The notes under the pieces: generated by a model | Database searches by the model: none | The model's input: the letters and a program-made list of their open reading frames with translations, nothing else | Told to the model about the DNA's origin: nothing | Position numbers and translations under genes: made by a program | DNA from: Gnetum montanum | Lineage: Eukaryota; Plantae; Gnetophyta | Assembly: GCA_015680685.1 (NCBI GenBank) | Contig: MNCI01002529.1 | Location: 6,069 to 70,068 of the forward strand | Direction: 5' to 3' | DNA length: 64,000 nt | Part shown: in pieces, positions 6,616-44,700 of the stretch | Layout: each line of letters opens with the position of its first letter | How positions within the stretch are numbered: the stretch's first letter is position 1

Positions 6616-6768
6616 ATGACTGAAACACAGGCAGAAGCGGCATCATTCTCTTCTAGTTTCGCCAAAAATTTGGATGAAGACAATGTGAGACCACTGCAGA
6701 GGATATTGTCTGGTGCAGGGGCTGCCGTTTTCTCGGCAGTTATATTCAATCCTCTTGATGTACTCAAG
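6616..6768 (+). CDS. MTM1: MTM1-like exon 1 (MTETQ...NPLDVLK)
   Basis: ATG at 6616, 51 codons, donor AAG|GTTTGA. The start codon is the least certain part. Confidence 0.85.
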
Positions 6769-12700: not shown

Positions 12701-15700
12701 GATCGTTGTCTTCTCACTTGGAGCTAGGGAAGTGCAAAACGTATGGTTTAACTCTTAGTGAGACATATGATTAGATGATGTGATTGGCTCTAAGTGTTCT
12801 ATCGGTAAACATGGTGAAAATGAATATAAATCCTATTACTAAAAACAAAGAAAATGTAAAGCTATTCTATCCTACTGGCGATAAGTATTCGGTCCTGGCT
12901 TTCTGTACACACCTTAGGCTACTATAATTGTTATTGGGATTACTAAGTAACTCAACTACTGAGTTGTTAGCACTTGTCAACTATTGCATCCGTTCTCATG
13001 GGAGGAGTTGCGGTGGGCTTGAAATCCATGTAGTCCAACAAGGCCGAAAGACTGGATGGATGGTTGATTGAAATTTTTAGGGAGTATGAGGATCTCGTGG
13101 GATCCAATTTGCTGGATGCATACAATAGTATGCTCACTTGGCAGTAGGTTAGGGGGAAAATCATTTGCTCAAGGGTGTTGCTGCTTTTCAAGGTCCCAAA
13201 CTTGATAGCTCCAAGGCATTTTCGACCCATCAAGGTCTGCAACACGTTGCTACATGTTTTCTCCAAATTGTTGGTTGGATGCCTTGTGCCACTAATGGGG
13301 AAGTTGGTTGGGGAGCATCAGGTGGGGTTCGTTAAGGGTTAGTACCTGCAAGACCAGGTGTTGCTCTTGCAAGAGATCTTACACTCAGTTAAGATTGCTA
13401 GATTTTGAGACATGTGCATCAAACTGAACATAACCAAGGCTATGACATTGTGAGTTGGACGGCACTTAGGATGGTGATGATGGAAAAGGGGTTCGATGCA
13501 AAGTTTGTCAATCTTTGCATTCAAATGCAACGAAGTGGCAGGTATTCCCTTGACATTGATGGGAGGCTATGTGGGTTCGTGAGAACAAGATGTGGACTGA
13601 GGCAAGGGGATCCATTGTCACTGCTCCTGTTTATCATGGTCATGGACTTGTTCAAAGGCTATTGCCTTGACGAAGGTGTTCAAGTTCTGCAGGTTGCTGG
13701 AGTGCATAGTGTGGTAGCCCATTACGTGGATGATATGATGGTGTTTTCTAGGGCTGTGGTGCCATAGGCTGTGGCCTTGTTATTGGCAATGGAGAGGATG
13801 TAGCGGGAGGTAGGCCTAGAAGTCAACAAAGGAAAATCAGCCATTTATTGCACCCACATGGAGGGAAGGGTGTAGACCAACATTATATAGACGTTGGGCA
13901 TCCTACTAGGCCAAGCGCATGACACTTATCTAGGAATGCCTATTTTTGATTGGAATAGGCAGAGGACTTGGCAGGGACTGATAAAGCAGGTTTAGCAGTG
14001 GACCACACTTTGGACTAGCTACTTTCTGTCTAGGAAAGGGAAGATGGTATTGGCTGTGATGATATTGATGGCAATTGCCTGGTTTATAGTGTCCATGGCA
14101 ACACCTTCGGCCATGGTGGTGCAAAGAATTGATAGCATTGTGAGGGAGTTCGTGTGGTCAGGGGGTAAAGGGGGTAGGAAGATGCACTTGGTGTCATGGA
14201 TGGTAACAATGTGGCCCAAACTAGCGAGGGGCATTGGTATTCTGGGGCTTCGAGACAAGATGGCTTTGGGCACACACCATCTACTGAATAGGTACATGGC
14301 ATAGGTTGAGGGGGTAGCACCATGGGTGCAGATGCTACGGTAGAAATATTAGTGATGGGAGGTTCATCGGGAGTGCTCCCAAGTCTGGAAGAATTTCTGC
14401 TGCCATGCTGTTATGGTGGAGTAGCTCGGATTATTGGCGTAGTACCCAAAGGAACTGGTTAAATTTTGATACCTACAGGTAGAGGGTTGGGCAGCAATTT
14501 GGAAGGGTCGTTTCCCTGAAAAGGTCACGATGTTTGGATGGTTGTTGAAACACGAGGCATTCCCAATGAGGGCCACATTGAGAGAGAGGGGGATTAGGTT
14601 GGAAGTTAGTTGTCCACGCTGCTAGGAGGTGCCTGAAACATTGCATCATCTCATTTTTGGGCGTAGGTTCTCTCAAGAGGTGTGGCTGGTTGCAAATATC
14701 TCCCCCAGCGCAAGTTTCCATAGGGACTTTTTGCACCTTGCTACATTGTGGGTCCTGTGGAAATGTAGGAACTCTCTGATTTTTCGGGGACAACCACTTC
14801 CTACGGCCATGGCAGTGGTCAGAGAAGCATGTGGGCTATGGAAGGAGGCCACAAAGGCCATGGAGCAACACCTACTTTTTGAACCATCATGAACATAATT
14901 CTCTAAATTGCCTAAATTATGGGTGTTGGTTGCACGGATGGGGTGGGTGGAGATGCTCAAGTGCATGGAGGGAGAGCCGAACCTGCCTACTTAGCAGTTC
15001 TACGATAATTGGGTGGGAGACACTACACAATATAGGGGTAGGAGGATTGAAATCATAGTGCAAATGTTGGTTGTTTACGTTGGGGGTGGAGGACATAGGG
15101 GAATAATGGCCTTGGTTGTGAGGGCATAGGATGACGTGAGGGAGTTTTTCACAGGACACATTCCCAAGACTGCTAGGGGGGCACATTTGGAAGTTTGGAC
15201 TACGAGGGGTCTGGAGAGATGCAGCGCTCTTGGTGGAGTAGTATTTTGTGCAATCCAGGTACCCCCACAAACTGGTGGGGTGCATTTCACTTTTCTCAAG
15301 CACCTTTGGTAGGGCTCCCCAGTAAACCTGCCCCATTTTTTTGGGAATCCCTTCGTAGGAGGCGATTGGGGTGGCACCCTAGGGTGATCCTCGCACTATG
15401 GTGTGGGGGTGTGTCGACTATTCACCTGGTGCCAATGATTGTTTACCAAAGAAGGCAGCGCCAAGGGTAGTCTACCAGGGCACAAGTGCAGCATAATCGG
15501 GGCCCCAAGGTGGAGGGCATAGGGGCGGAAATGTCCATAGCCATGGAGGAATGGCTATTGGAAGAGTGCTGCTTGGCGGCCGAGCAGGCACAGCTGGAGG
15601 AGCAGGTGCAGTGGTAGCTCAAGTGGGAGAACATGCTGCAGGAGGCCTGAAGAGCAGCAAATGAGTTGTGCCTATAGGACCTCAGGTGCATGGAGGTGGT

Positions 15701-18700
15701 GATATTAGAGCACTGGACAGGATTGGCACAGCTTAGAGTAGAGAACCAATGACTGGCACTTGGGCTGGGATTGACAGGACAACAGATTGTAGTTGGCACA
15801 GATGCCTTAGAGACCTTGGCTGCGGCTGAGAGTCTGGGGTTTGGGTCGTAGTTTGTCGAGATTGTGGGATGCAGTAGTTTGGGGCTAGACGTGGGTAGGT
15901 AGTGCTATGGCCCCGTCGATAAGGGAGGGGGTGTCCTAGGCATTCCGTGGTGCATGTTGCATGTATGTCCCCTACTATTGGAAATAGGGGTTGAATATAT
16001 GGGGTGATGGTACTAGGGTTGTGTGAGAGGGCTACGCTGTGCAGGTGCGTAGGTGATCATGTGGTACGTTGCAGGTGACCGTTGTGTCACGTGGATGGGT
16101 TGTGTCGACTCCAGTCGATGATCTTTGTGTACATTTGTACATTATTTTTCTAGAATAAAATCGCTCGATTGTTTTCCAAAAAAGAGAAAAAAAACTCAAC
16201 TACTAAGCAAATCAAGTAAAGTCACTACTGGGTTACCAAACAACTACACTTTATGCTCAAAACCAATCGTACGTATTTTGCCCATATTAATAAACAATGG
16301 AATAGTAAATGACTTAAGAAGTGTAAATGACAAAGTAAAAGTAAAAGACATAGGAGTATAAATCTATTCTATGTAAGATGTTGCAATGATGAAGAACAAT
16401 CTCAATTTTTATTAGTGGTAATGAATTGTGTCTAGGAACAATTCACTTGAATAAAAATGTTGTACAACTATAATATGCCACATAGTAGGCATTCACAAAT
16501 AACTCTAAATTCACGAAAATAAATTGCAATACTTTTGCTAAAGGTTGGCAAAAAATGTTCCTTTGATACGATGGTAGACTCGTATTTATAGGCATGACTA
16601 TGGCCCACTACATCATATATTGAGCTACAATATCATATCTATGATATTGTAGTCGTTTACATCAAATGTTTTATTAATCTTCAACTTCTACAAATATCCT
16701 AAAATATTCCTTATATGGACATACATGAAATGATGCTTTAGAATCCATTATCCATTCATCAGATTGACTAAACTCACTTCTACACAAAGTATTATCAAGA
16801 GTGATCAAAGTTACACCAACTTCACCATTACTTTGATTACTTGATGATTCTTGGGAAGTAGCCTCCTTTGCTTTGCTCCTTTTCTCCTAATCATGATAGT
16901 TTCTTTTCAAATGACTAGGCTTGTGAAAATACCAACAACCTCTCTCTTTGCTTTGTGAACATGGCCTACTCTTGCTTTTGGCATCATCTCTGCTTCGAGT
17001 TGCTTGCTGTTGTGATCTACCTCGATTTTCAATGTTTAAAGCCTCTTTTCTAGATGATGTTGATTGCATAGATGCCTTTCTGTTTTTAGCATCCAACAAG
17101 GCTACCACACTAGATTTTGCCACAATAGTGCCAAGATCCAGTGTTGCCTATGCTACACTAATTGTTGTAACTATTGTTTCCCAACTCTTTGGAAGAGACC
17201 AACAACAAGGATTTAACCTCATCATCCAATACTACTTGCAGTGCTTTCAGTCCTAGTATAAGGAATCCACCATGGTGCTCTGGGTGAGCACTTATAGTCA
17301 AAGATCCATTCATCATATCTTTTTCCTACTATCACGTGCGTAATCACACTTATCAAATAAAGCTCCTACGCTATTGTACGATGCTATTGTATACTAATAT
17401 ATCCACATATATTTGTGGTATGTAGAGATTTCATGTTTCAGTGTGAAAAACAATTGTTAACTTCAAAGAGGTGCTAAGCCATTGTATTATTGGCCTTCAT
17501 CTTGAACTTGAATAATATTCTCATTTCATAAATTTTGTTTGCCCTTGATGGCTATTCATACAACTGATTAACTTTTTCTACAAGCCTTTTGCTATACTCT
17601 TAGCAATTAGTGAGGTTTGATCAAAGAGAGAGCTTTTTGATTCAACTTATCCCACTCTTTTTGGAACATGTTTTGAGGCTTCCTTTTTGCCTCCTCCGTG
17701 ATGGGAGGTTCACATTCTTTCTGATATAGAATATCTGTCATTAGAATTTTCCAAATCTGCTAATACACTACTATCTTTGTCAACCATCTTCAATACACTA
17801 CCAGTAATCTATAGGAAACCTTGCTTTGATACCACTTGTTGTGCTTAAAAATTAGGACTGAAAAATAAATTCACTCATGCAACCATTGACAACAGAAAAT
17901 ATAAGACGAGACAGATTTACATGGGAAAACCCCTCAAGGTGAAAGGAAATAACCACAGGAAAGTAGGCAGATTATTTTCTTCTTGAGAAATGAATTTCTT
18001 GCTTCATCTATTACCTCCCTCCCTCTCCTTCAAATAACCTTCAATCCCATAATTTTAGACATTTAATCAATAGATTAGGCAGTTAAAGATAATGATCAGC
18101 CTAACTGAATATCAGTGACTGATAACTTATTAGTCACATCTCATCAATCTTACTGACTTAAACACAGCAAAGAAGAAACTAATTACAAATTTCTTGATTG
18201 GAGATTAAAGAGAGAGAGAATCAAGGAATAGATTTTAGTTCATGGTTCAACAAGTAGGAAAACCAGAAATTAGATGTTGCACATTAATAATCTTGTTTAA
18301 ACAAACAATTGGCCTGCAAGCTCAATAATCATGAGGAGCAATAACTCATAAATCAAATATTGAAACTCTAATGGAAGGATCAAAACAAGTGCAGCCAACA
18401 TCAATCAACAAACAATGATGAATAATGTTAACAGATAATTTAATAGCTTTTTAAAATATTAGTATAGATACGGTATTAGCTTTTCTGCCTTGGATTTTGC
18501 TTATGCTAATAAATAAATGAATTTTGATTTTGCCAGATCTCAGGTTCAATTTCTTCAGATCAGAAAATTGATAATTATAAGACATTCAACATAATATCCA
18601 TTTTTGTTCTTTCTTTTTGTATTAATAACAGATCATTTCTAATTTACCAGTAATAATTATGTAGTTGTGCTTCTCGTTGCAGCTGCATCCCTTCTTTTGA

Positions 18701-20750
18701 ATTATATCATAAGATGCAAAGAAAGAGGTTTCAAAATGAAAACATGATAAACTGTAAGTCTAGGACATAAAACCAAGTAAAACACCTTCTCTTTTGGGCC
18801 ATTAATGATGCAAAATTTTCTATTTGATATTCATGACTTATTATTGCATCATTTGATGCCATGCAACCTTTCTACATCTATGGAGGAGCAACTTATATTC
18901 TACTAGCTGATGAAACTCTAAAGAATCATGCATAAAAAACATACAGAACATTCCCCATGATCATTACTTAAAAACAACACAACCATGATAGCCATAGTAT
19001 TCCTGATTTATGGGCCAGGTTCCTTCCACTTGATTTATTGGTTAAGTTTCTCAGCAGTGCATGTGTATATAGTTTTAAAAGAATCATTTATGCTACGCAA
19101 ACATGCTTGTTTCAGTCTTTGAAGCATAACATAACATCAATAAGAGATTTATGCATGACTGAAAATACAATCCTGGATCTCCACAGTTTACTAGTTAAAC
19201 AAATACATGGGAGATTAATGAAAATGGGTTTATTCATATTCTGAAGTTGGTCAAGTTTAGAAGAATTTTTTATGAGTCCCTCTCAGTATGTGAAGGAATG
19301 TGAATAAGCAGGTCATGGGTTTGCGATAGTTTTTTTACTTATTAGACTGTAATATTGAAGGGGAGAAGGGATAACAATTACCACTGAGAATTTAAGAGCT
19401 GTTATAATAGTTTCCAGATGTCTTTAAAACCTAGGTGGAGCATTTTCCATTAGTGATGAATATTCAGTATCACATTAACTTTATACTAGGTGCCACTATT
19501 CCAAATGAATGTGCCTATAGTATGTTGTTAATACAAGGGGGAGAGCCTAGTAGGTAGGTAACTGAGCTATTCTCTCAAAGTTTTATTAGAAAAATCATTT
19601 CTGGTATTTTGTTTTTTTCCAGAGGGTAATGTTAAGTCTACCTACGACACACCTCTAGGTTGGCAGCATAACAAGTGCAAAGGATGCAAAGGGTGCTAGT
19701 ATTGAACTTTGAACCTACTACCTTGATTACAAGGCTGTGCAAGTGTAGGACCCCTAATAACCACCTTTTAAAAGTCAGTATAATTTTTTTTTTTGTTTTC
19801 CAGTCCTCTAAAAACATAGGATTATACTTGCATTAGCAACTAATAAGAATGTGACTCATAATGATGGGATGATTATAGGGCCTATGTACCTCATTCCCTC
19901 ATTAGACTTAACAAGTTATTGATAGAATTAGACTTTGCCAATTCTCATAATCCCAAGGATTGATGCATCTATTGCATATCATCTATTTGTAGTAGTACTA
20001 TGATACCTTAAAAACTAGCTTTGTCCAAGGTGATTGCTAATACTTTGCATCACTTGCGAAGCTAAAAACCATCAAACATTTGTGTGACTCACTTGTTTCA
20101 AATTTTATTTATAAGCAGCAACAATGAATGTGGTTGGATGTACTCCTAGTCCTCCACTATAATTCTACCATACAAGATCATTTAGTCTATAATATGCTTC
20201 AAACAATTGTTGGGAACAACTTTGCCCCTGCAATGTGGCATTGCATTCACACATTAAGGGCCATCCAACTCGAAGAATCTGGTTATCATTTGGCCATGAG
20301 TGAGATTATCTTTAGGTTTTAAACTACACAAACAAAGTTTGGCTTAACCATCATTTTTGGACTATACCTCGATATAAGCCCAAGATAGGTGACCAGGGAT
20401 CATACATGAGGTGGGTACACACTTACGAATGACACCTGCATCATTGAGAACCTTCGGGTATTGTGCAACTCAACCCCCTTGGGTCCAATAGTTTAGGATA
20501 TTAAGTCAAAGCAACCATGTGCATGGGTAGGGTTGAATAGTGGTGCTTATCTCCACATCTAGGGCAGGGTAAATTTAAGTTTGAGAGAAGACGAAGATAC
20601 TGAAATAAATCTAAAATTATAATTATCAACACAGTTCATGGGAGTTGGGATTTAACAATTTTTCCCTTTCTTCTCAGCCTATGACATTTTTCATGCTCTT
20701 CAATGTCTGTAATTGGGAGATGAATCTTGGAAAGTAAATTACCAGCCTTT

Positions 20751-20784
<34 letters not shown>

Positions 20785-23700
20785 GTAACTGTTCTTGTTA
20801 TTCTCAGGCCAAAACAGTGAATGGGTAGTCTTTAATATCATTTCCAGAAAACAGAAAAAAAGAAACAAAGGGAAAATTCTATATGTGACTATTATCATTA
20901 TCATTATTACCATTCCCTATGAAATCAGAAAACAGTGAATAGTAAATAACACCCACACTTCCAGACCATTCAGGACCAGGTTCTCCTCATGTAGGAGGTG
21001 CTTCACTCGCTTCGAAGTTCGGGTTTCCCTAGGCTTTGCCTCAAGCTTGACATTACTAAGGCATACGACACTCTCAGCTGGGAGGCATTGCAGTCCATTA
21101 TGCACCTGAAAGGGTTTGATCAGCAGTTTATCCAGCTGTGCATTCACATGCAGTCCTCGGCCGATTTTTCTTTCGATGTGGGGGGGCGGTTGTGGGGCCT
21201 CTCCTCTCCAGGAAGGGGGCTGAGACAAGGGGACCCGCTCTCACCCCTTCTTTTCATCATCGCCATGGACTTAATGCAGCACTACTGCAGCACATTCAGG
21301 GTGGATGGTTTGGACATCGTCGGGGTGGCATATTGGGCCGAACACTATGCAGATGATACAATGCTGCTCAGTCGGGCGGCGGTCCCACAGGCACGATGCA
21401 TCAACGTTGCTCTGTCCCACCTGGCTACTGAATTAGGGCTGGAGATTAATCGGACCAAATCTTCAGCTCATTTCATTAATGTTGATGAGCAAATTAAAAA
21501 TCGGGTGGTGCAAATCCTGAACATTTTACCCAAGATGGGCAATGACACCTATCTGGGCATCCCCCTCTTTCGGTGGGGGCGAACCATGTCATGGGGACCG
21601 CTATTGGAAAAAATTGAGAGAAGAATGGGCCACTGGGCAAATCGATTCCTGAGCCGCAAAGGATGCCTGCTTGCGGCAACGGGGATCCTCATGGCAATTG
21701 CCCGATTCGTGGTGGCCGTTGCCACCCCCCTAGCGCCATCATCAATGAAATTAACATGCTGGTCCGTAGCTTCATCTGGGAGGGGGGCAATTGGGGGGGG
21801 GCAAGATCCACCTGGTCAGTTGGGAGCGGGTAGTGCACCCCCGGAACGCGGGTGGATTGGGCATCATGTCCTTCGAGGATGAATTGATGCTAGGACAACA
21901 ACGGTTGGTGCTTCAGTTTATGTGCTCACATGGAGAACTGATCGAGTGGATCCACATCATGAATGCAAAATATCTACGTTGGGAGGTGGAAGCGCGGGAT
22001 TCTAGGCCTTGGCAGGCGCTGTGCCGGCATGCTCGTGCAATGCAGATCCGCGGGTGGTTGGGTCTCGAGCCGCGCACCCTGTTAGCCGCCAAGTACTCCC
22101 AAATCGCCGGCTGGCAATAGATTTGGAAGGGTTGGCTACCCGAAAAAATAAATTTTTTTTTCTGGTTGGTTCAATGGGACACGCTACCCGTGCATGCCCT
22201 CCTATGTTGGCGCGGGATCTTACAGCACGACACTTGTCCCACATGCGGCGCGGCGGCAGAGATAGTTCAACACTTTGCGTACAACTGTGTGTGCATGCGC
22301 ACCACATGGCGCGCGACAGCGGTGATCCCTCATGTGCCTCACCGGCGATTCTTGGGCCACACTACTTTTATGGGTAGCGTGGAAAGCAAGGAATCACACT
22401 GTTTTCCTGCAGAAACGGCTCCTGCCCCCCAGCGGTTGGTCCTCTAGGCTCTCCATGCGTGGAAAGAAATCGAGGCGACGATGGGAATCACGCCTACATT
22501 TGAGCTGGACTGTGCCACGTTTCGGGAGGACGAAGAGCTCTGGCAGATGGTGACACAATGCGGCTGGTCTGACCCTTTGCAGTGGCTGGTCGGGGACCCA
22601 GATCTGGCAGACGACGCATTCTTCTCCAACTGGGCCGACGACCGCACCTTTTTTTGAGGGCGCGAGATTCTGATCATCGAGTCCTCAATCGCCAGCTGTT
22701 TGGGGGCCCAGATCGTTGGGGAGGTCATTCTGCCGTCCACCCGCGGCTTGCAGGACGTAGAAATGTTCTTCGACGGGCTCGTACCTCGAATCAGGAGCTG
22801 ACAGGTACCTAGATCTTCCCTGCCCTGTCTCTAGGCCCGGGTAGCAGATTTGGTGGACAGATTTTTTGTCCAGTCTGGCAACGGTTGCAAGCTCCAGGGC
22901 CTACACTTTGCTTTTCTGCGTTGTCTGAAGTTAGGTTGCCAGGTCAACCTCCCCTGCTTTTTTCTGAAGGCCTTCCTGCTCAAATGACGTGGCCGCCATT
23001 CTGGGCTAATTCTTGCCTTGTGGTAGGGGGTAGAGGGGGGGCAGCACCCGTTGTCTTCTGCCCCCCCGCGGGGGTCCCTTGGATTGCCCCCCTGTTGCAA
23101 GCCCCTAGGGCCCTGCAGTCTCGCCCGGCCAAGGGAGCCACTGGTCCCTTTGGGCTTCAACCTTCACGCGGGGCCGGTGGACCCAACGGGAGCGGCACCC
23201 CCTGCTCGCCTTGACAGACTAGTTTCCCCCCCACTGGAGACCTTTGGCCATAGGAGTTGGCACGAAGAGCTATGGCAAGCCATGCAGAGGGCTGCAGACG
23301 AGGCGCGGGAGGCTGAGCGGCGGGAGTGGGAAGCCAAATGGCATGAAGCCCTTGCGTAGGCCCAGGCCGACCTGGAAGCCCAAGTTTCGGAACGAGAACA
23401 TGAGCAGGTGAGGCAGCAGGACCTCATGGTCGAGGCTGCCAAGGCCCGCTTAATTGACGAAATTCGGGCCCAAGTGTGGGAAGAGTTGATTCAGGAGGAC
23501 TCGGCCCAGAGACAACGTCAGCAGGTGGAGCAGGCGAAGCAGGAGCGGCTTCAAGAGGAGGAGGATCAACGACAGCGGCAGCTCGATCGGGCTCACGAGT
23601 ACAACGCCCATCAATGGCTAAGAGGGGGGCGGGTCCTTGGCATCAGCTGTGAGAGCTCCTGGGGTGAGCTTAGGCACCATATCCGCCGGACCTCGGTGCG

Positions 23701-26700
23701 CTTCCATCCGGATGCAGGTGCCTTGCAGGCGGATCGGAATTGGCGGGAGTCGGCCATGCCGGGTATCTAGCAGGCGGCCAGTTTCATGGACACAGAAGAC
23801 CACCGGAACACTCTGGATCTTCTCCATGAGCTAGAGCGCCCTCACTGTGCCGTTGACAGCTTTCGACGAACCCCTAGGGGGGGGGGGTTTTGGCCCCGGG
23901 TCATGGGTGATGCTTACCCCTCCCCCCGGGCCGGTGCTGCTTCTGTGTCCCCCTGCCCTCCCTCCCCACGCTGTCGATCATTGCTCCCCCGTTTCCTTGC
24001 TGGTCTGGTTCCCCCATTGTTTTTTGGGGGGGCCTCTTCCTTTTTTGGGTGGGGGGTGGGGGGAGGGGGGGCGCCCCCTTGTGGGGGGGGTGCACACCCC
24101 CCNNNNNNNNNNNNNNNNNNNNNNNNNNNNNNNNNNNNNNNNNNNNNNNNNNNNNNNNNNNNNNNNNNNNNNNNNNNNNNNNNNNNNNNNNNNNNNNNNN
24201 NNNNNNNNNNNNNNNNNNNNNNNNNNNNNNNNNNNNNNNNNNNNNNNNNNNNNNNNNNNNNNNNNNNNNNNNNNNNNNNNNNNNNNNNNNNNNNNNNNNN
24301 NNNNNNNNNNNNNNNNNNNNNNNNNNNNNNNNNNNNNNNNNNNNNNNNNNNNNNNNNNNNNNNNNNNNNNNNNNNNNNNNNNNNNNNNNNNNNNNNNNNN
24401 NNNNNNNNNNNNNAAAAAAATTTAGAAATCTAATTTTTGGGAGCAGACAAGTGGCAAAATTCCATGTGCTCATGTGCAATATGGAAAGGAGAAACAACAA
24501 TAAAATCTGATATACGCTAAGTTTGAACACCATGATGGATTAACATGGTTCCAAACTTTGACATCTTTGTTAATAAAGTTTCCAGCCTGTAATGTTTTCA
24601 CATTGAGAGAAATGTAGGCTTTGAACAAGGGACCATTTAACAATGATTTGAGATATGACAACTCTCTTAGAAACCTCTCAAAATTGATCTAAAAATGATC
24701 AACAAAACATAACATGTGCACTTAACAAAAGACACCAAAAATCCTAAATATGCATAGCTTTATTTTTAATATTAAAATGAGTACTCAATGGACACTTTGG
24801 CCATCCAGCTGCGCTACACCAAGTTTTTCCAACCCTACAACATCTTGTAGCCCACACAAGAGATCACCAGCCTTGGATAGAATGATGTGGGGCATTTCTT
24901 GTATAAAACAAAAATGATCACAAAAACAAGAAATACCAAGTGCACATGACACAAGAAAATGCTAACTCATAAGCCCAAAACATGCATACCAAAAATCAAA
25001 TCCAAGACACATGAGAGACTTCATGCATGACTCACACTTCATAAGAAATCCCACATGCCCTCATGAAATAATGCTCACTTTTCCAAGCCAATACAACTTC
25101 AAACACCTACTAAAAATTTTGTACAAGGGTTTGAAATATACAACTTTAAAGTTGAACTTGACCAATTTTGGGAGCAAGAAGATACCTCAAAGTTGGGTTG
25201 TTGTCCAGCTAATAGCCTCAAAAAATCAGCTTCAAATTGCAGATTCAAGGTGATGCCAAAAACTTCTCACAAAATCAGAGAAAACGGTCCCTTGAATCAG
25301 CCAAACAGTCCCCAAAAATCAGATCCAAAGCCTCCAACAGCAGCAAGAAAATCCACCTTCCAAGAGCCCACAAGAACACTCAAGACAGCCGAAGAGATGG
25401 CCAAGAACAAGCAAGGAACAACCACTCTTCCTCTCCTCTCCTCCACTCCTCACCCCTCCAACTAGCATAGTCTCCCCTTTCTTGGCCAGAAGTGAAAATG
25501 AGAGCAAAACACCCCCTTGATTTATAGGATGGAGGAGACCCTAGGGCTTTGATAAAGACTTATGCACAAAAGTTTATACAATGGACAAGGAGTAGACAAT
25601 CCATTTTTCAAAAATCCTTTTTTTTATTCATGACATCATTGCTACTTGACTTGGACAAGCAAGCTCTCATAAGGAAGTGGACATGTGAAATTGACAACAC
25701 TCAAGAGAGTCACATGGCCCCTATTAAATGAGTCATTGGTCCCTTTTCCAGCCATTAATATGAACTGGACAATTTTCATATATAAATAAAATAGATTACT
25801 TTATAAATTTCATTCTTCTTAGAATGGATGATACTGCGAATGTTCTCTCATTTTGATGTATTTAATAAAATTGATTTTAAAAGTAGATATCATCATATTA
25901 AAAGTGAAGAGGAGGTGAATGGAAAACTTGTTTTAAAATCCTTGATGCTTTCCATTTAAATGGCTTGTGATGTCATTTGTGTTAACCAATGCTTTTACAT
26001 TTTGTGGTTGATGTAGTGTGTATTGAAGGAATTAATTGGAATATGTTGCATTGTGCTTTTTTAATAATATTTTGCTTTTTAGCAAGAATAAATATGAGCA
26101 CTTTGCATATTTGACTTTGGCTTTCAAAAAACCTAATGAAAACCAACTAATTATAATCGTCAAGCAGTGTTAATTCTTGATAGGTGATGTCAGCTACTTC
26201 GGTTGTGTGGCATAAAAGATTGACATATGGATGGCACCTTCAAAGGTGAACTGAATCTTGGAGTGGCCAACTCCAATGAGTATTCATGATATCATAAGCT
26301 TCTTTGGACTAGCAAGTTTCTATCGTCAATTTATTTGAAGATGTGTGGTTATAGGTTTTCAATGCTCAGTTTGTTGAAGAAGGATTGATTGTTTCATTGA
26401 TTGAAACCAAGGAATGATAGTTTTGAAGAGTTGAAAAAGAATTGACAGCAAACTGGCGTTGGCCTTGTCTGAGCTTTGAAACCTTTAGAGGAGTGTTCTT
26501 TAGGATTTTACTGAACTAGCTATTAGAGGACTGTTGTTCAGGATCGAGAGTCAATTGCTTACTTTTCTGAAAAATTGAATGACAACATGAAGAAATATAG
26601 TGTTTATGTGAAAGAATTATATGTAATTTTGCAAGCACTTATATACTGGAGGGCACTATCTTCTTTCTAAAGAATTTTTGTTGCTAACTAATCACGAAGT

Positions 26701-29700
26701 ACTTAATCTTCCTTTGCAAGTTATGAATATTCATATCTGATTTGAACTATGAGTGTTAACCTAGCTGTAAGACTCTTGACATGGAAACCACAGGTAACAG
26801 GTTCAATTCTAATGGGCAATGCTATGCTATGGAAAATTTTGTACAAGGAATTTCTGATGTTGCTGTGGCTCAACAGATCCAGAGGGTCTTAGTAGATGTA
26901 ATTAAATACATTTTGTTTGAGTTTCATAAATCCATTCTTATCAAGAAATGAGCTGGAGATCAGTTCATTTGAGGCTTGGAACATATCTTACACCGTCAGG
27001 GTTTTAAGGCCACCGTTGGCTTTTACTTAATATACACATAAGTCAGCTACTACCTCTCACAAGATCTAAATATTCCATAAAATAATCATGATGTTTGTTT
27101 TCAAGTTCTATCGTTGCTTTTATAATGTGCTAATGAAGTGAATATTACCGTGTTCTTCTCAGATGGAAAAGTAATTTGATAGTTTATGTATGTCAAATTG
27201 CACTACGAATTAACAAGCATTAACGTTGTTGCAATTTTACTGTCATAGCTTTCATAGGATCTGCCTTTTGATTATTTTAGTAGAACTGGGGTTTCTCACT
27301 AGGGAATCATTCTAGCATACCCAGAGCTGACACAATTTAGACAGGAACTAAGTGTTCAGACTTCAGATGCAGTAATTTTTTTGGCGTGCTCTTACATTTA
27401 ATGGTAAATCAAGAACTGTACTTTGATGTTGTTTATAATAGCATTAGTGAAGTTATTCTTGTTCTGTTTGACTGAGTCAGGTTGGTATATATATGCCTTC
27501 TTATGATATTATACGGAATTTTCTTGAGGAATTTTCATATGTGAAGGCACCTCAGTTAGCAGCATATTCTCCGTTAATTGCAGCTTCTATAGCACGAGCA
27601 TTGGCATGTATAGTCTGTTCTCCTATTGAACTGGCAAAGACTAGAATGCAGGTTAGCAGCCATTGTTTACTTTCTCGATTCTGTTTTGTTTGATGAAGGC
27701 TGATATTTTCAGGTTATGTTTCACATAAATTTGGCAAATTTTTAAAGATGATGTAATTATGAAAATAATTTTATCCTAAACTTTTGTTGAATTTCTGCTT
27801 GATGATTGTTGGTGCCTAAGACCTTTCAAACTTCAAAATTTTTAACTTGTCGATTGTACCCTCTAGCTTATCAATTTACAGTAAGTAATAGTTTCAAGTC
27901 ATCACTGGATCTATCATCAGCCATAGTTTGATGTATTACAAGAGTTGAGAGGATTTGAATATGTTCAGAGTTGTTAAAGGTCATAAGTTGCTAATTTTGC
28001 TTTAGATATTCAAGTACAATTATTTTTTTTTCAATATTAAAATCAGGATAACTTCTATTATAAAGTGAAATTTCACGTATATTGCTATTTATTGCTGTGA
28101 ATTGTATTGCAATCCCAACTTATATAAACAACGTTAATTATATTTATTCCTTTTATCATAATGTTCATTGTTTGTTGTATACTGCTATGAAGGCTGAGAA
28201 GGTTATTCACTTTGGTAACAAGCCTCGAGGAATGTGGAACACTTTAGCTGATATTTGGTTTTCTGTAAGACGTTCATCGACACAAGCAAATGGTGAGCTT
28301 ATTTCTTTTTGAAAGGAGTAAAGGGCTGTGTTGCTGAAACTTTTATTTTGGAAGAGGTCAGGTTTCAGACCTAGATCTTTTGTCACTCTGTAATCTAAAA
28401 TGTGACTTCCAGTTATTTATTCCATTTCATCTTCTATGTTTTAAAGCCATCCTAAGGTTTTCTTAGGTTATTTTCAAGAAGAAGCTGTCTTTAACTTACG
28501 TTGAACATGACCAAATCATCATTCAAAAATCTGTTAAGTTAGAGTATAGCGGAATAGTTTATTACTAATAAGCATTGTTGAACTAATTATGCAACTATGG
28601 AGAACAAAAAATTAAAATGCATTTATTAAATTTTTTAAAAAGTGCAATCCAAACGTGAAAGGAGATAATTTTTCCTGGCAAAACATAACCCATCAAGGAA
28701 CTTTGCAATGGCATGATGAGGACATATGGAAAAAAGCAATTAGCCAAAGCTGATAAAACAAAGAAGGTACTCAGCTGAAGAAGTTATCTCAGTAATAAAA
28801 CATGAGCTGAAAGATTCACACAAAGATGTGAAAACAAAAGAAGAAAAGGAACAAATTGCAAAAAAGCAATTCAAAACTGGTCACTCACGGAAGTGAACAT
28901 ACACTGCACTTTTTTTCGAGGTAAGGTTGGGGATATATTATAATACAAAATATACAAAGTCCAGGCCAAAAAAGAGAAAAGGCGGGGTGCGGAGGGATTT
29001 ATCCCTTTCTGGGGGAAGTAACTCCCGTAACAGCTGCAAAGAAGAGGGAGGAATCTCCTTGTGCATAGAGACTTACAACTAAAAAAGACAAGTCATACAA
29101 CAACATTTGAAACAACATATTGGCTCCATCTCATGTCCCTGATCTTCCTGAAAACCGAAAAACCTCATAGATGAGCCTTTGACAAATTTACAAAAGATAG
29201 AGACCATTATGGAAACAACAAATAAATACAATGACATCTAGGCCTCAACTCCTACCGAGTCCCAGTCAATGTGACCCTCGCCTCCTTGGAATTGATGAAA
29301 TATGCCACCTGTTTGAAAACATGGTATTTCTCTTTCTTCTTTTTCTTCTCTGTGTCACTGAGGCCAATTCCCTTGTCTAGATGGCAGGTGAAAGAGACAC
29401 GTCGGATGTAGGCATGAAGATCATCTTAGGAAGCGTAGCACTTAATCTTCATTATCATGTATGGGCACATCTTGTTGGTCTGATAGTCTTTGACATTAGC
29501 TGCATGTTACTTTTGCAGGTGCCTCCTCATTTTTTTCTATTCCTGACATTCAACTTCATGTCTCCTGATTTCCTCCTGCTTCTTCAGGTGAGTCTCTTCC
29601 ACCACCTGTAAGAGCTCTACCTTGATGCTCTTCTGCAACTCATGCTCAATTCTGAAATGAAATTCCATCTGTTGTCTCCCATCTCACCCTAGTCTCTTCC

Positions 29701-32700
29701 TCCTAGATTTGTTGCCCTTTTTTTTGGCCTCCCATTTGAGGTGGATCCATATCCTCTGTGGCAATCATGAGATCAGCCTCTGCTTGTTGCTTCAACTGTT
29801 GTTTGATTTCTGCAACCCATTGCTGAACCTCATGAGTGAGCTTGTTCTTTGCCTGCATATCCAAGAATTCTCCTAGTTTTTCCAACTCTGCTCTACTTGT
29901 GGTTGAGACTAGGTGGCCATATTTGCTCTTTGTTGATCCACCAAGCTGGATGACAAATCCCCATTGTCTACATGCAAGCCCTAAGGCCCCATCTCATCCT
30001 TCGTGTGCACCTCTGTTAGGGCTTGTACTAATAGCAAAGGCCATGGAAGTCCACATCATGGGCTCACCATTCATAAATAGTGGTAAAATCTCAGACTTCC
30101 ACGGTGCAGACAAAATAATCAACTTAGAATGTTTGCTAGTTTGTTACTTTTCTAGGATAGCCCCAAAATTTTTTGGTAAGTTAGATAGTCTCCAAAGTTG
30201 AAGGCATTGCATAAGAGCAAAGTGCATTTCCTGCAACTTATGAGCATTCTCAGACTGCAAAAAAAAATTTCTCAACCAATTTTGCCACTCGCTGCCAAAA
30301 AAGAGGGAATTTGGATCTCGACACCTAGCCTTTAATAGTCCGTGCAACAAAGCCTTGAAAGAAGGGAGTGGCTTTGTGTAAACTGCACCTAGATGGAAGG
30401 ACTACGTCACTGGAGCAAGGGATTCCCAGGAAGTCCCCAATGGCCTCTTTGCTTTGGAGAATGTAGGTCTTGTGAAAGCAAGTTTCATCCCTGTGCCATC
30501 TCAAAAATAATTAGGTGCATTTAACATACATTGCATTATGTAGGTTCAGAGTTGGGACCTTTCACCCGCTAACGAGGATGCCTTGATGCGGTTGGGACTT
30601 GTGGGGGGCCCAGGGGTTTGGGTCCGTTGTCGGTGTGGGGTCAGCTGCCCTCGCCTACGCTATACCTTTGTATAGTTGTTCTTTTTGGGAATAAATTTCG
30701 CTTGATTTTTTCCAAAAAGAAAAGAAAAGAAAAACATACATTGCATTATGTAGTGTCAAGAGTTGAAGTTGTGAAGCAGTAGCTTAACATAATTGAACTA
30801 AAGTTGCAAAGTACTAGCCTAGTTCAGACTTTGGAGAACTTTGTAGTATAATAGAAGATGGTGAAACCAAGCTTTAGTACACATTGACAAATGAGCTACT
30901 TGGGAACCTTTGAGCTTAGTTAAGATGTAGCCTTTAAGTTGCATCACTAAACAATTGGTTACATTATGAAGGATTTGAGCTAGTCAATTTAGCCAAAACC
31001 TCTAATGAACCCCGAAGAAGTTAACAATCTCATAATACAAATTGTGTTATGGATTTGATTAACAATTGCAATATTCTTTTGTTATGAAATTGGTTAATAA
31101 AGAAATTTATTGTTTTAATAAAAATTGTGAACATAATTCTAATCCTATGCAAAGGTTTACTAAGTAAACACTCTTAATCATTCTAGCCTTGTCTCAACAA
31201 AATGGGGTTGGCTACATTATTTAACTTTTTCTATCCATCTCTATTAAGAGATAGATTTTTATCTATTTGCAATTTCTTTAAATAATCTTCAATTGTTTTT
31301 TCCATGTCTTTTTTAACAAGTAAACATTGGTTTATGGAACTTGGATTCATCTATGGATGAAAAATTGATATGGTATTAGAACCAAAGGATTTGATGAGCC
31401 CCGAGTCCCACGGTCATTTCGCTTCGAAGCCGCTTGGTTAGCTAAGCCGTGGTTGAGGTCGTTGGTGGAGGACATTTGGGCAGATTACCGGCCTAGCCAA
31501 GGTGATCCCCGGAATTTCCTTAAGGAGGCCTTGCTTTGTCTGAAGTGGGCCATTCGAGCACTCCCAGTGCATGATAAGTCCTCCTTTTGGATGGGTTAGA
31601 GGACTCTCCGAGATCAGCTTGGTCAGATCCAGGCCAGGCAGGAAGCTGGGGAGGACTTACACGAGGAGGAACAACACACGTTACGTCAGCTTCAATCCCT
31701 TGACTTGGAGGAGGAGACATATTGGTGGCAACGCTCCTGGGTCAGATGGATCTGGGAAGGGGACAGGCAAACAAGATTTTTCTTTGCCATGACTAAGACA
31801 CGTGGGGGGAGCCAACCACGTTGTCTTTGCAATCAGGATGGGGAGACTATTGATGATCCGCAGAAAATTGCAAATGAACTGATGCAGTACTAGGGGAGGA
31901 TCTGGGCCAAACGTCCCACTAGGCCCATCTCGGTCCACGTGGCGTGAGTGTTGAACGAGAGGGACAACATGCGGCTGCTGGCCCCTTTCTTGTGGCAGGA
32001 ACTCACTGCCACTATCAACAGCATGCCAGGAGGAAAGGCACCTGGTCCTGACGGCTGGAGCCTTGAGTTCTTTAAGACGTTCATGGATATTGTGGGACCC
32101 AATATCCTAGATGCGTTCAATCTCATGTTGGCCAAGAGGCAGGTCCGGAGGGAACTCAACTGCTCCTGCATTGTGTGCATCCCGAAACAATCAGATGCAC
32201 ACTGCCCTAAACACTTCCGCACTATCGGTGTATGCAATGTACTCATTCGACTCTTCTCCAAACTGCTGGTGCATAGGCTTGTGGGGATCAACCAGGCGGG
32301 CTTCGTGTAGGGCCGGACCATTCAGGACTAGGTTCTCCTCATGCAGGAGGTGCTTCACTCGCTTCGAAGTTCAGGTTCCCTGGGCTTTGCCTCAAGCTTG
32401 ACATTACCAAAGCATACGACACACTCAGCTGGGAGGCCCTGAAGTCCATTATGCAACTGAAAGGTTTTGATCAATAGTTCATCTAGCTGTGTATTCACAT
32501 GCAGTATTCGGCCGGTTTCTCTTTCGACGTGGGGGGTGGTTGTGGGGTCTCTCCTCTCCAGGAAGGGGGCTGCGACAGGGGGACCCACTCTCGCCCCTTC
32601 TTTTCATCATCGCCATAGACTTAATGCAAAATTATTGCAGCACATTCGAGGTGGATGGTTTGGACATTGCCGGGGTGGCATGTTGGGTTGAACGCTATGC

Positions 32701-35700
32701 GGATGATACAATGTTGCTTAGTCGGGCAATGGTCCCACAAGCACGGTGCATCAACATTGCTCTGTCTCGTCTGGCAGCTGAGTTGGGGCTGGAGATTAAT
32801 CGGACCAAATCTTCAGCTCATTTCATTAATGTTGATGAGCAGATTAAAAGCTGGGTGGTGCAAATCTTGAATATCCTACCCAGGACGGGCAATGACATTT
32901 ATCTGGGCATTCCACTCTACCGATGGGGGTAGAACATGTCGTGGGGGCCACTGTTGGAGAAAGTTGAGAGAAGAATGGGCCATTGGGAAAATCGTTTCCT
33001 GAGCCGCAAAGGACGATTGCTTGTGGCAACGGGGATCCTCATGGTGATCGCCCGATTCGTGGCGGCCGTTGCCACCCCCCCTAACGCCATCATCAATAAA
33101 ATTAACATGCTGGTCCGTAGCTTCATTTGGAAGCGGGGCAAAGGGTGGGGGCAAAATCCACCTAGTCAATTGGGAGCGAGTAGCGTGCCCCTGCAACGCG
33201 GGGGGATTGGGCATCACATCCTTCGAAGATGAACTGATGTTGGGACAGCAATGGTTGGTGGTTCGGTTTATGCGCCCGCATGGGGAACCGATTCAGTGGA
33301 TCCGCATCATGTGTGCAAAGTATCAACGTTGAGAGGCAGGGGTGCAAGATTCTAGGCCCTGGCAAGCGCTATGTCGGCACATGCATGCGATGCAGGCCCA
33401 AGGGTGGTTGGGCCTCAAGTCGCGTGCCCTGCTGACTGCAAAGTACCCCCAAATCGTTGGCTGGTAGCAGATTTGGAAGGGGTGGCTGCCCGAGAAAATA
33501 AAGATCTTCCTCTGGCTGGTACGGATGGACGTGCTACCTGTGCGAGATCTCCTGTGTCGGCACGGGATCATGCAAAACGACACCTGTCCCAGATGCGGCG
33601 CCGCGCCAAAGATAGTCCAGCACTTCATTTACGATTGTGCATGCATGCGTGCCACGTGGCACGTGGCGGCGGTGACCCCCCCGATGTGCCTCACCGGTGA
33701 TTCTTGGGCCACGCTACTTTTATGGGTAGTGTGGAAAGCAAGAAATCACACTGTTTTTCTGCAGGAACGGCTCACCCCCCGGGTTGGTTCTCCAAGCTCT
33801 TTGTGCATGGAAAGAAATCGAGGCGGCGATGGGAATCATGCCAACATTTGAGCTAGAATGCGCTGCGTTTTAGGATGACGAGGAACTCTGGCAGATGGTG
33901 ACACAGTGCGGCTGGTGTGACCCTCTGCAGCGGCTGGTCGGGGACCTAGATTTAGCAAATGATGCTTTCTTTTCCAATTGGGCTGACGACCAGACCTTTT
34001 TTCGAGGGCACAAGATTCTTGTCACCGAATCCTCAATTGCCAGCTGTCTGGGGGTCCAAATCACCGGTGAGGTCATCCTACCGTCTATCCGTGGCCTGTA
34101 GGATGCAAAACTATTTTTCGACTGGCCCGTGCCACGTACAAGGAGCTGACAGGTGCCCCGATCTTCTCTGCCCCATCTCTGGGCCCGGGTAGCAGATTTG
34201 GTGGACAAATGTTTTGTCTAGTCTGGCAACGGTTCCAAGCTTCAGGGCCGACATTTTGCATTTCTGCGTTGTTTGAAATTAGGTCGCCAGGTCAACCTCC
34301 CCCGCTTTTTCTTGGAGGCCCTCCTGCTCAAGCGACATGACCGCCATTCTGGGTTAATTCTGGCCTTGTGGCGGGGGGTAGAGGGGGGGCAACACCTGTC
34401 GTCTTCTACCCCCTCCTCCCCCCCTTGTGGGGCCCCCCCTGGATAGCCCCCTGCTGCTGCCCCCCAGTCCCTACGGTCTCGCCTAGCCAAGGTAGTTGCT
34501 GGTCCCTGTGGGCTTCAACCTTTACGCGGGGCCGACGGACCCAACGGGAGCGGCACCCCCCCGCTTGCCTCGACAGACTGGTTTCCCCCCTGCCGAAAAC
34601 CTTCGGCCACAAGAACTGGCATGAAGAGTTGCGGCAGGCCACGCAGAGGGCCGTAGACGAGGTGCATGAGGCTGAGCGACGAGAGTGGGAGGCTAAGTGG
34701 CATGAAGCCCTTGCATAGGCCTGGGCCGACTTGGAGGCCCAGTTTTCTGAGCGGGAGTAGGAGCGGGTGAGGCAGCAGGACCTCATGGCTGAGGCTGCAA
34801 GGGCCTGGTTAATTGACGAAATTTGGGCCCAAGTGCAGGAAGAACTGAATCAGGAGGACGCGACCCAAAGAGAGCGTGAGCAGGCAGAGCGGGTGGAGCA
34901 GGAATGGCTTTAGGAGGAGGAGGAACAACAGCAACGGCAGCTCGATCGAGCTCACGAGCACAATGCCCGACAATGGCTCAGAGGGGGGCAGTGCCTGTAA
35001 CTCATCCTTGGCATTAGTTGTGAGAGCTCCTGGGGTGAGCTCAGGCACCATATCCGCCGAACCTTGGTGTGTTTTGATCCTAATTGGGGCACCTCGCTGA
35101 CGGATTGGAACAGGTGGGAGTCGGCCATGCAGGGTATCCAACAGGCGGCCAGTTTCATGGACATCGAAGACTACCAGAACACCTTGGATCTTCTCCATGA
35201 GCTAGAGCGCCCTCATTGCGGCTGTCGACGAACCCCTAGGGGGGGGGGGGGGGGNNNNNNNNNNNNNNNNNNNNNNNNNNNNNNNNNNNNNNNNNNNNNN
35301 NNNNNNNNNNNNNNNNNNNNNNNNNNNNNNNNNNNNNNNNNNNNNNNNNNNNNNNNNNCTCGATTTTTCTTGGGTCTGTTTCCTGGTCATAACATGACTA
35401 ATAGGGTGCTGAATATTTTGTGACTTAGGGGTTTTTTGCCCTCCATTGAGGGCCATTGCTGATGGCCCACGATTTGTAATCTCATGTACTATAGTCTTTC
35501 TTTCTCAGTAATATAATCCTGATTATTTTCTCAAAAAAGAAAAGAAAAGAAAAAAGATTTGATGAGAAGTTGTGTTGCGGTGGCAAATGGAGGATCAGGA
35601 GAGCGAGTGGATTATGGACAAGGGTGACCTGGGAGCCTTCAGGTGGGAATTGCAACAATAGATTGGTGTCTCCTCGTTTTTGCATAATGGATCACAAGGG

Positions 35701-41700: not shown

Positions 41701-44700
41701 ACACCAACGCTAGGAGATATTCATTATTGTTTTGTATTTTATTCCTTGCAGAACAAGGATTGCGTGTTCTCTGGACAGGAGCAGGTGCTCAGTTAGCACG
41801 TGATGTGTCATTTTCTGCTATTTGCTGGGCTACTCTGGAACCGGTAACTTTTTTGCTTAGATGACGCTTAGACATTTATAGAATCTATATATGTATGTAT
41901 TGGAGAAAGACTGGGAAATACATTGCAGCATAGAATTGCAAAATACAAGTATACAAAATGGGAGGGTTTACCATATAATGTATTTTCTTTGATAATATTA
42001 GTGATTTTGATATTTTGGCAATAACATACATCTGAAAATTTTCTGAATTAATGGGATAAATGGCTGAAGGCAATGACGATGGTATACCTTGAAATTCCTT
42101 TAAAATCTCTCTGCTAGACAAGTGTAACCAATGAGGTGTTAGCTTTGTGCTAAAGGTCTTGATATGGAAGTCCCAGGTCACAGATTTAATTATATTGGGC
42201 AACACCGAGTTATGTACAAATTCTTGTAAAAAGAATTCTGGAATTGGTGTGGTTGAACAATCTAAGAAGGTTGTAGTGGACGTAATTAAATACAGTCAAT
42301 TTCAGTTTCATATATTTGAGAATATTTTCTGTTATGTAGTAATTGTTATATGTGTTACTGAGGCATAGCTTACTTGGTTGGAGCATGTGGCTTGTGGGTG
42401 TGCAAGTCATAGGTTTGATCGCAATGGGCTATGCCAAGACTTGTCACCTAGTGTCATTATAAAGATGCACATTCATGCTGTGGTGTTAGGCCAATAGCCA
42501 ACCATGGAAATCATCATCAAATCCTTAACCTACCTTAATAACTTAGTCCATGTTGTTGGGATGCAGTCACTATAATGAAGATGAGCAATTTTCCTATGTG
42601 GCTGTGATAAAAGCAAACATTGAAGCCTGCCAGTATGTCTACTAGGCCATTGGTAAGAACATCTATCATAAATTTGACAGCATCTTCTAATGGAATTTGT
42701 CATACATTATGACCTTTTGGAAAGGGGAATGTACAGAAATGAAACTCAAGTGTATGATTGTGTCCATAGAGACCCTTGGCATCTATTGGACAAAGTCAAC
42801 TTCATCCCATTTTTTCACTGGAATTTCTTTGTATAATTTTTTTTTGGAAGTTGAGGTTTGGGGGAAGGATATGGTGACTATGTAAATTCTAGTTTTCTTA
42901 TTTATGTTATTGATCAAATGACACATCATCGGGAAGGAATGCAATGGTTGAAACAAAACTGCTTTTAAATGTTGCAGTTTGGTCTAATAAGAAGCAACAG
43001 ATGATTAAGTAGAAGAGAATCAAATTTAAAAGCAGTAGAACATCAAGTATGCTGACGATCAGATTGTCAGGTCAAAATAGACTTGATGACACAACTCTGA
43101 GGAAATGGCCTAGCTAGGTAGAAAGCTAATGCAAAGAAAAGACAGAAGGCATATGAAAATATAAGATGATGATGACGTTTTGAAGAACATCCTTTGTAGG
43201 ACCCCTAGTAACCACCCTCTAAAATTCAGTACAATTTTTTTTTTCTTCTACAATTCTCTTAAAACATGAGGCTATGCTTACACTAGCAACTAATAAGGAT
43301 GCGGCACATATAATGATGGGTTGATTACAAGGCCTACATACCTCCTTCCCTCATTAGACTTAATAAGTTAGCGATGAGATAAAACCTTAGCACTCCTCAT
43401 AATTCTAACGATTGATGCATTAATTATGTATTGTCTATCTTTAGTAGTACCATGATACCTTAAGGACCAGTGTAGCCAAGGGTGATGGGTAACACTTTCC
43501 ATCACTTAGGAAGCTAGATACATCAAACATTTGTGTGACTCACTTGTTTCATGTTTTATTTTACAAGTAGCATCAACAGAGGTGGTTGGATTTGAACCTA
43601 ATCCTCAACTATGTTTCCACCAAACACCTCAACTATGTTTCCACCAAACAGGATCATTTAATCTATAATGGGCTTCAAATACTAGCTGGGAATTAAAAAT
43701 ATATAGGTTTCAACAACTTTGCCCATGCAATGTTGCATTGCATTCACACATTGAGGGCCATCCAACTTAAAGATTCCAGTGACCATTTGGCCATGAGTTG
43801 GGTTATCTTTGGGCTTTAAACTACATACACAAGGCTCGGCTCAACCATTATTTTTGGACTACACTTGGATATACCCCCTAGATAGGTGACAGGGGATTGT
43901 ACGGTAGGTGGGCATACACTTATGAATGGTGCTTACATCATTGAAAAGCTTTGGGTGTTGTGCAAGTCAACCCTCTTGGGTCCAATGGCTTAGGAAATTA
44001 AATTGAAGTAAGCATATATGTATGGGTAGGGTTGGATAGTGGTGTTCATCTCCACATCTAGGGTAGGATGTATGCAAACTAAGTGAACAATGCAACCCAT
44101 CCATTCAAGATATGAGGATCAATACATTATTATTAATATGATTAGTAAATGATCCTTACAAATATTACCTACTTACTAGCTATGAATTTAGGTGAATTAC
44201 TTATTCTAGGGCCTAAAGGTCTCATGTGGGTTTATTTTATAGAAAGCAAATAAACATACATGATCAGCCATATATTTTCTTTTGTTTCTTTGCACAACTA
44301 AAAAAATATATCTACTGATAAATAAATGGGGTTAGCATATTAAAGCAACAATAAATAAATAGGGTGTGGGTGAGTATGAGGTTGTTAATGGTCTTTGATA
44401 GTTAGGTCATGGGGAAGGAGCGGTAGGCATCTGATCACAAATCTATTTTGTGTTGGGTTGGAACTATTCAAGGGCAGGCTCCGAGATCTTTCCATTTCAA
44501 GTGCATGTGGTTGGGTAAGCCTTGGTTGAGGCTGCTGGTACAGGATATCTGGTAGGAGTACTCAATCACCCATGAGCCGAGGGTTTTCCCGAAAAGAGGG
44601 CTAAAACTATTGAAGCAAGGAATCAAGGCCAGAGCCTTGGAGGAGAAATACGGTTTCAAGGCATACAAGGCATGGTTGCTGATTATTCTCTAAGAGGTTC

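Follow-up and report, generated by a model that had tools for sequence, protein, structure and literature searches.

The LINEs of this window—the whole 64,000-nucleotide stretch of DNA that was analyzed—continue past the last L1 helix of ORF2 into a coding tail that has evolved under purifying selection. We lean, though not heavily, toward reading them as L1-clade elements whose ORF2 is likely in frame with this tail of ~460 codons, and whose tail comprises a likely LTR-derived domain, a Pro linker and a predicted coiled coil, followed in one branch of the family by a likely J-domain, whose role would be to draw host Hsp70 to the particle of ORF2 protein and RNA. The parts, copy by copy, are as follows, 'domain X' being our name for the domain with which the tail begins:

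Near 20961 to an N gap at 24103, + strand: copy 2, a 5'-truncated L1-clade LINE
20995..21750, + strand: copy 2, RT and start of the thumb (Pfam RVT_1, E 2.9e-15)
22094..22309, + strand: copy 2, zf-RVT zinc finger (Pfam PF13966, E 2.5e-12)
22371..22468, + strand: copy 2, terminal L1 helix, WxxWxxRN...WKE, holding a C run of variable length at ~22419-22432
22481..23035, + strand: copy 2, domain X, ~180 aa, starting at a Met
23036..23251, + strand: copy 2, Pro-rich linker, stop-free, in the domain X frame
23252..23599, + strand: copy 2, long helix, likely a coiled coil, rich in E, Q, R and A, in the domain X frame
23600..23848, + strand: copy 2, J-domain-like module, in the domain X frame, with HPD at 23705-23713
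12961..16192, + strand: copy 1, 5'-truncated LINE, target duplication AACTCAACTACT
31400..35551, + strand: copy 3, LINE from the endonuclease end to an A-rich tail, target duplication GATTTGATGAG
33829-34383, + strand: copy 3, domain X, with the coil next
34959-35219, + strand: copy 3, J-like part, motif reading DPN
44310..48350, + strand: copy 4, an older LINE, from the endonuclease end
46987-47473, + strand: copy 4, domain X
28909..30522, - strand: copy 5, A-tailed 5'-truncated insertion inside an older repeat, 13-bp target duplication
30510-30084, - strand: copy 5, partial domain X (the element begins inside it), followed by the coil and then the J-like part
29500-29234, - strand: copy 5, J-like part, motif reading HLD (NCBIfam ActJ, E 1.1e-5)

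The DNA of the window is eukaryotic (37.7% GC, with four N gaps). RT and zinc finger are present in four of its LINE copies, all 5'-truncated; the fifth insertion, on the minus strand, is without RT. Copies 1-4 belong to the plant L1 clade: a non-LTR RT is followed by zf-RVT and the WxxWxxRN helix, and their nearest relatives are plant L1s—all 120 relatives listed for the copy 2 RT carry RVT_1, and those with names are plant L1-type proteins, 27-37% identical. Copies 1, 3 and 5 arrived as non-LTR insertions, as is clear from their target duplications (11-13 bp) and from 3' ends rich in A. Copy 4 has an A/T-rich 10-bp candidate only, and the 3' end of copy 2 runs into an N gap, so that its target duplication is not readable. 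Every copy is 5'-truncated and ORF1 is absent from the window; copy 4 retains an SDH motif at its endonuclease end, which we take to be the end of the AP endonuclease. RT, zinc finger, domain X, coil and J-like part are found together in single elements in copies 2 and 3. All five copies are dead, and among the copies examined none is intact and full-length. The family itself is high-copy: 6,811 and 6,484 contigs align to 1.9 kb of copy 2 in two DNA runs that bear different organism labels, and abundance is similar in a third organism's run; tblastn against plasmids gave no match. RNA reads of the family are present in runs with the same species label, 43 in X17 and 1,799 in X20 (1,539 of the latter are <90% alike, and both strands are represented); they come from other copies and allow no inference of translation or of full-length RNA.

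Two of the long copies have short companions. A-tailed fragments at 30544-30732 (+) and 35573-36043 (+) each adjoin a long copy and re-duplicate the same target, and because three target copies are present each time (28896/30523/30733 and 31388/35556/36050), the same site was struck twice in both cases. Older dispersed repeats, 71-83% alike, occur as the pairs 19744-20568 and 43195-44067, 24520-25796 and 49916-51241, and 28576-31368 and 40294-41097; the repeat at 28576-31368 is the element that received the copy 5 insertion.

An initial annotation of this DNA had reported a domain common to all five long copies, situated after the zinc finger and helix, and so it proves. When the copy 2 domain, with stops read as X, is used as a tblastn query against the window, it recovers copy 3 (33805-34383, 78%, E 1e-96), copy 4 (46921-47238 and 47291-47464, E 8e-24), copy 1 (14839-15357, 29%, E 3e-16) and copy 5 (30507-30262 and 30266-30114, minus strand, E 3e-15), the sole further match being the frameshifted end of copy 1 (E 0.34). 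The motifs that had been quoted were all found in their places, Pfam zf-RVT lies directly 5' of the domain in copies 1-4 (E 2e-12 to 6e-9), and copy 5, an A-tailed insertion without RT, does begin within it. The domain is real, but it spans ~180 aa rather than the ~150 proposed, starting in copy 2 at the Met at 22481, and the coding tail extends ~270 codons past the end it had been given, through a coiled coil and a J-like domain that had been overlooked.

From domain X onward, the tail of copy 2 amounts to 460 codons with seven stops and zero frameshifts, and includes a coil of 116 residues whose composition is E 0.20, Q 0.16, A 0.16 and R 0.13. The J-like part is restricted to copies 2, 3 and 5; the tails of copies 1 and 4 lack it and end in an acidic, helical stretch. 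In copy 4 a 45-bp tandem repeat (2.8 copies, 47800-47923) forms a 15-residue repeat that lengthens the coil. Copy 3 contains an N gap at 35255-35358, and in copies 2 and 3 alike the assembly breaks off in a gap where the sequence turns G/C-rich, just 3' of the J-like part. A quick RT tree, built from copies 1-4 plus the top 60 among the 120 relatives, groups the four as a single long-branched clade (SH-aLRT 100); within it (2,3) separates from (1,4), a split that agrees with the presence and absence of the J-like part. Because the lineage sits on a long branch, loss of RNase H within it is not inferable from the tree.

That ORF2 and tail were fused in frame in the active element we consider likely, and hold to with some confidence. 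RT, thumb, zinc finger, helix and domain X (14860-15410) share one frame in copy 1—as had been noted earlier for the zinc finger and the domain—with a single frame running from the RT motif LRQGDPLS into domain X (13429-15360, 644 codons, 18 stops). The helix of this copy is without the C run and fits the profile of 43 L1 relatives up to WKE, and domain X begins six residues later; in the relatives themselves, the protein ends within ~40-70 residues of the WxxWxxRN helix, or else RNase H follows. The continuation into the domain that the initial annotation ascribed to copies 1-4 is in frame in one of the four RT-bearing copies, but broken in the other three. In copies 2 and 3 the frame is lost in the C run inside the last L1 helix, where the W-to-W distance is 80 nt and 76 nt, respectively, versus 81 nt in copy 1, and the homologous last turn of the helix (WKE) is in the domain X frame. 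The junction of copy 4, read by hand, has three frameshifts and a 10-nt deletion, and so is uninformative on fusion. Variable-length C/G runs occur at several places in the copy-2/3 subfamily (22325-22332, 22419-22432, 23068-23099, 23198 and 23878-23890), and many of its frameshifts can be traced to them.

The same junction invites another reading, in which the tail is a separate protein—an ORF3 from its own Met, or the product of slippage or frameshifting at the C run—that acts in trans, with ORF2 mostly ending near its usual place. We think this unlikely, although it deserves to be taken seriously: copies 1-3, like the stand-alone relatives, have a Met at the start of domain X, tail-only 5'-truncated copies exist (copy 5), and just four of the 24 junction-spanning contigs listed have the in-frame length, 13 being copy-2-like and seven copy-3-like (20/24 off frame, 13 belonging to a single class). 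Those 24 contigs come from ~1,350 records and represent old, diverged loci, some perhaps shared between runs, and the aligner favors copy-2-like lengths, a bias that leaves eight records at -3 unexplained. The break, moreover, falls within a conserved L1 helix, the last turn of which shares the frame of domain X; copy 1 is in frame and free of the C run; and the shift in copy 2 is not that in copy 3. Most of the readable loose-end groups are in frame, too: nine among 24 listed were framed by hand, and of these, seven, with 37 contigs and 14 RNA reads between them, are in frame, and the two that are not both show low agreement.

Fused or not, the tail has been kept by purifying selection, to a degree in domain X comparable to that in RT. 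Between copies 2 and 3, dN/dS is 0.16 in RT, 0.25 from thumb to zinc finger, 0.18 in domain X, 0.17 in the coil (over 23201-23599) and 0.29 in the J-like part. Shifted-frame controls gave 0.82 and 1.32 for domain X, and 0.70 and 0.62 for the J-like part, whose pN/pS interval is wide (0.19-0.65) and reaches these controls. At five stops of copy 2 (22445, 22655, 22985, 23024 and 23768) the other copies mostly have a sense codon, in contigs and in RNA reads alike, and these stops are private decay. The TAG at 22445, for instance, reads CAG in ~66-81% of contig depth in three DNA runs and in 15 of 24 RNA reads, and a conserved stop right after the zinc finger is absent. Two stops common to copies 2 and 3 (22799/34147 and 23357/34716) count against the preferred reading; they would most simply be explained as repeated methyl-C decay.

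The searches found few relatives of domain X. The initial annotation likened it to the Transposase_32/ATHILA accessory ORFs, a kinship that is plausible by way of its relatives' language-model neighbors, but that Pfam does not register: PF20167, PF03078, PF10536 and RVT_3 matched no copy, PF20167 and PF03078 gave no gathering-score match in the relatives either, and PF10536, the plant mobile domain, is absent, too, among the Atlas families listed. No Pfam family matched domain X at E 1 in the five copies or in the relatives P0002, P0004 and P0005, nor at E 10 in the relatives P0006-P0008; NCBIfam yielded no family for it, and a PDB sequence search found nothing at E 10. Searched against 1.84 billion representatives, the five-copy profile gave four matches at E 0.001, namely P0002, a Welwitschia transcript ORF whose start resembles that of domain X and which points to a gymnosperm as the likely host, P0004 and P0005, two short unnamed ORFs, and P0003, an ankyrin-repeat protein that was dropped as a spurious profile match. 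A second-round profile search added only P0006-P0008. Domain X aligns with the short stand-alone ORFs P0004-P0008 at an hhalign probability of 97.8% (E 7e-13, 168 columns), a result that is not independent of the first profile search because P0004 and P0005 were found with that profile. The Atlas neighbors of P0004 include clusters in which ATHILA ORF1 (0.91, 65% of members) or Transposase_32 (0.90, 47%) is frequent, and those nearest P0002 are unnamed plant clusters (0.94), followed among named families by Transposase_32 (0.89) and ATHILA (0.88), scores near 0.9 being leads rather than family membership. A word-index search of proteins of 351-2000 aa with the copy 2 domain scored none of 433 candidates, which is weak evidence, and metagenome scans for loci of domain X relatives confirmed none among 274 and 172 pattern matches. 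Structure models are poor (pLDDT 53.7 for domain X, and 46.8 in a second model); at this low confidence domain X is predicted to be helical with one beta-hairpin, and Foldseek against PDB and BFVD, and VIA-align, run with such low-pLDDT models of domain X and the J-like part, returned no match (best Z 4.9), an outcome uninformative for either part.

From these sequence relationships, domain X appears likely to have been captured from an accessory gene of the LTR-retrotransposon type. Other histories are conceivable—an origin in a gene of the host, in a DNA transposon, or as an old LINE part that LTR elements took up—and two points fit them: no genomic context was observed for P0004-P0008, and the nearest Atlas clusters are unnamed plant proteins. 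We judge them quite unlikely, nevertheless, since the named neighbors are two families of LTR accessory ORFs, the succession of domain, linker and coil is the usual plan of such ORFs, and the domain X profile matches none of the 120 L1 relatives (best E 0.23).

The terminal module of copies 2, 3 and 5 is likely, by sequence, a J-domain. It reads RFHPD in copy 2, the one copy of the three in which HPD is intact. When a profile of the three copies was compared with PDB, the best 20 rows were all J proteins, as were 25 of the 41 rows overall, at a best E of 0.008, which is weak. Pfam DnaJ (PF00226) matches copy 2 at E 0.012 and 16.1 bits, below its gathering score of 27.8, and does not match copy 5. 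The NCBIfam matches of copy 2 are confined to ActJ, which we take to be a small J protein, and four DnaJ families, and that of copy 5 is ActJ; all of these J-like scores fall under curated cut-offs. At 23632-23634, before the LG of the J-like part, copy 2 is without 12 bases that are present in copy 3 and many other copies; other copies read Pro-Tyr at this site, the pattern with which J-domain helix I begins. A possible sixth, very old fragment of coil and J-like part lies at ~6400-6770 on the minus strand, with a local score versus copy 5 of 81 against a maximum of 48 in 300 shuffles, to which a Lys run contributes in part.

A J fold need not imply a J function. The tail might be fused and selected as we propose and its J-like part yet be independent of Hsp70, a drifted fold serving as a plain interaction module, with domain X and the coil giving the tail its role in chromatin targeting or anti-silencing. 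The (1,4) branch manages without the J-like part, and HPD is altered in copies 3 and 5 with scores under cut-off, as such a role would allow. Those alterations, however, amount to one base per codon, in dead copies, and the J-like part has been retained across copies that are just ~27% identical, and so we regard an Hsp70-independent module as distinctly improbable. Least credible of all, and to be dismissed, is that domain X is a very divergent RNase H: it occupies the position of the RNase H of Ta11-type plant L1s (PMC5348765), but its hhalign probability against an RNase H-region profile of 15 L1 relatives is 0.14-0.22%, compared with 99.4% for the positive control, RVT_3 (PF13456) matches no copy after the zinc finger, the PDB search at E 10 was empty, and the low-confidence prediction of helices and one hairpin does not suit it. 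'In place of RNase H', the phrase used initially, is thus correct as to position only.

If the preferred reading holds, of a selected tail likely in frame with ORF2, an L1 ancestor would have acquired a whole accessory ORF—domain, linker and coil—probably by template switching or 3' transduction, and this would have become fused in frame to ORF2 at the accessory start codon. Joining at the ORF's own start codon is suggested by the Met that copies 1-3 and the stand-alone relatives have at this point. The J-domain would have been gained later by one branch, or lost by the other. As to function, each step of which we infer, the tail may be an adaptor on the ORF2 particle, in which domain X and the coil form a nuclear protein-interaction scaffold, and the J-domain a tethered Hsp70 activator beside RT that folds, activates or remodels the particle. 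By analogy with free Hsp40/Hsp70 acting on hepadnaviral RT, the J-domain would stimulate Hsp70 next to the RT. The fullest form of the proposal is a gymnosperm-type L1 with a giant ORF2, to which a whole LTR accessory gene and then a working J-domain were fused, so that RT has its own Hsp70 co-chaperone in cis; this we put forward tentatively, as a possibility somewhat short of an even chance. Were it true, LTR and non-LTR elements would have exchanged a gene that selection then kept in a successful family, and one natural construct would make the function of the Transposase_32/ATHILA accessory domain testable. The need of LINE particles for Hsp70 would become testable, too, because sister branches with and without the J-like part share one genome.

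Full-text searches brought up no LINE that has either an ATHILA/Transposase_32-like domain or a J-domain; Repbase, Dfam, supplements and most subscription journals lay outside their scope, and the repeat databases and supplements may hold the family. The portions available of PMC4441479 and PMC9289625 hold nothing on J-domains in LINEs, and those of PMC8275611 no passage on LINEs. That LINE ORF2 can end in an added domain is already known, from RNase H and from a viral helicase. The name of Smyshlyaev (2013) is reportedly associated with the RNase H-bearing plant L1s of the Ta11 type. These have an archaeal-like RNase H at the C-terminus of ORF2 (PMC5348765, PMC4408406). Like them, the present elements consist of a putative endonuclease, RT, zinc finger and WxxWxxRN helix followed by an extra domain at the ORF2 C-terminus, and show 5' truncation, target duplications and an A-rich tail; unlike them, the extra part is not RNase H but domain X, coil and J-like module, ~460 codons in all, and the RT lies on a long branch apart from all 60 relatives in the tree. 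Insect R1/TRAS LINEs have a viral SF1 helicase at the ORF2 C-terminus, an end that tolerates additions (PMC4686597). In them, too, a domain of foreign origin has become fixed where ORF2 ends, but clade, host and domain all differ from those here, the donor here was likely another class of retroelement, and what was added likely includes a chaperone adaptor.

On the LTR side, the ORF(+) of sunflower Athila 14 is a Transposase_32 (PF20167) accessory ORF with a predicted nuclear signal (PMC11728184), and the origin and function of the accessory ORFs of plant LTR elements are described as unknown (PMC7264820). Domain X likely belongs to the same domain superfamily as the accessory ORFs with PF20167/PF03078, by way of its relatives' Atlas leads; there, however, the domain is a separate ORF of an LTR element, and here it is joined to LINE ORF2 and gives no direct Pfam match. 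In bdelloids, types of ORF3 are common to LTR and Penelope-like elements (PMC5408684), which is likewise a case of the same accessory gene types across retroelement classes, although in another host, with other genes, and as separate ORFs.

J-domain (Hsp40/DnaJ) co-chaperones share with the terminal module a helix-HPD-helix pattern, and differ from it in that the module is LINE-encoded, scores under family cut-offs and has a putative activity. Polyomavirus T antigen carries a J-domain in cis. The Hsp70 system, with Hsp40, suffices to activate hepadnaviral RT for RNA binding, according to PMC2094093, and the ORF2 protein would join hepadnaviral RT and T antigen as an RT or replication protein that uses, in this case putatively, Hsp70.
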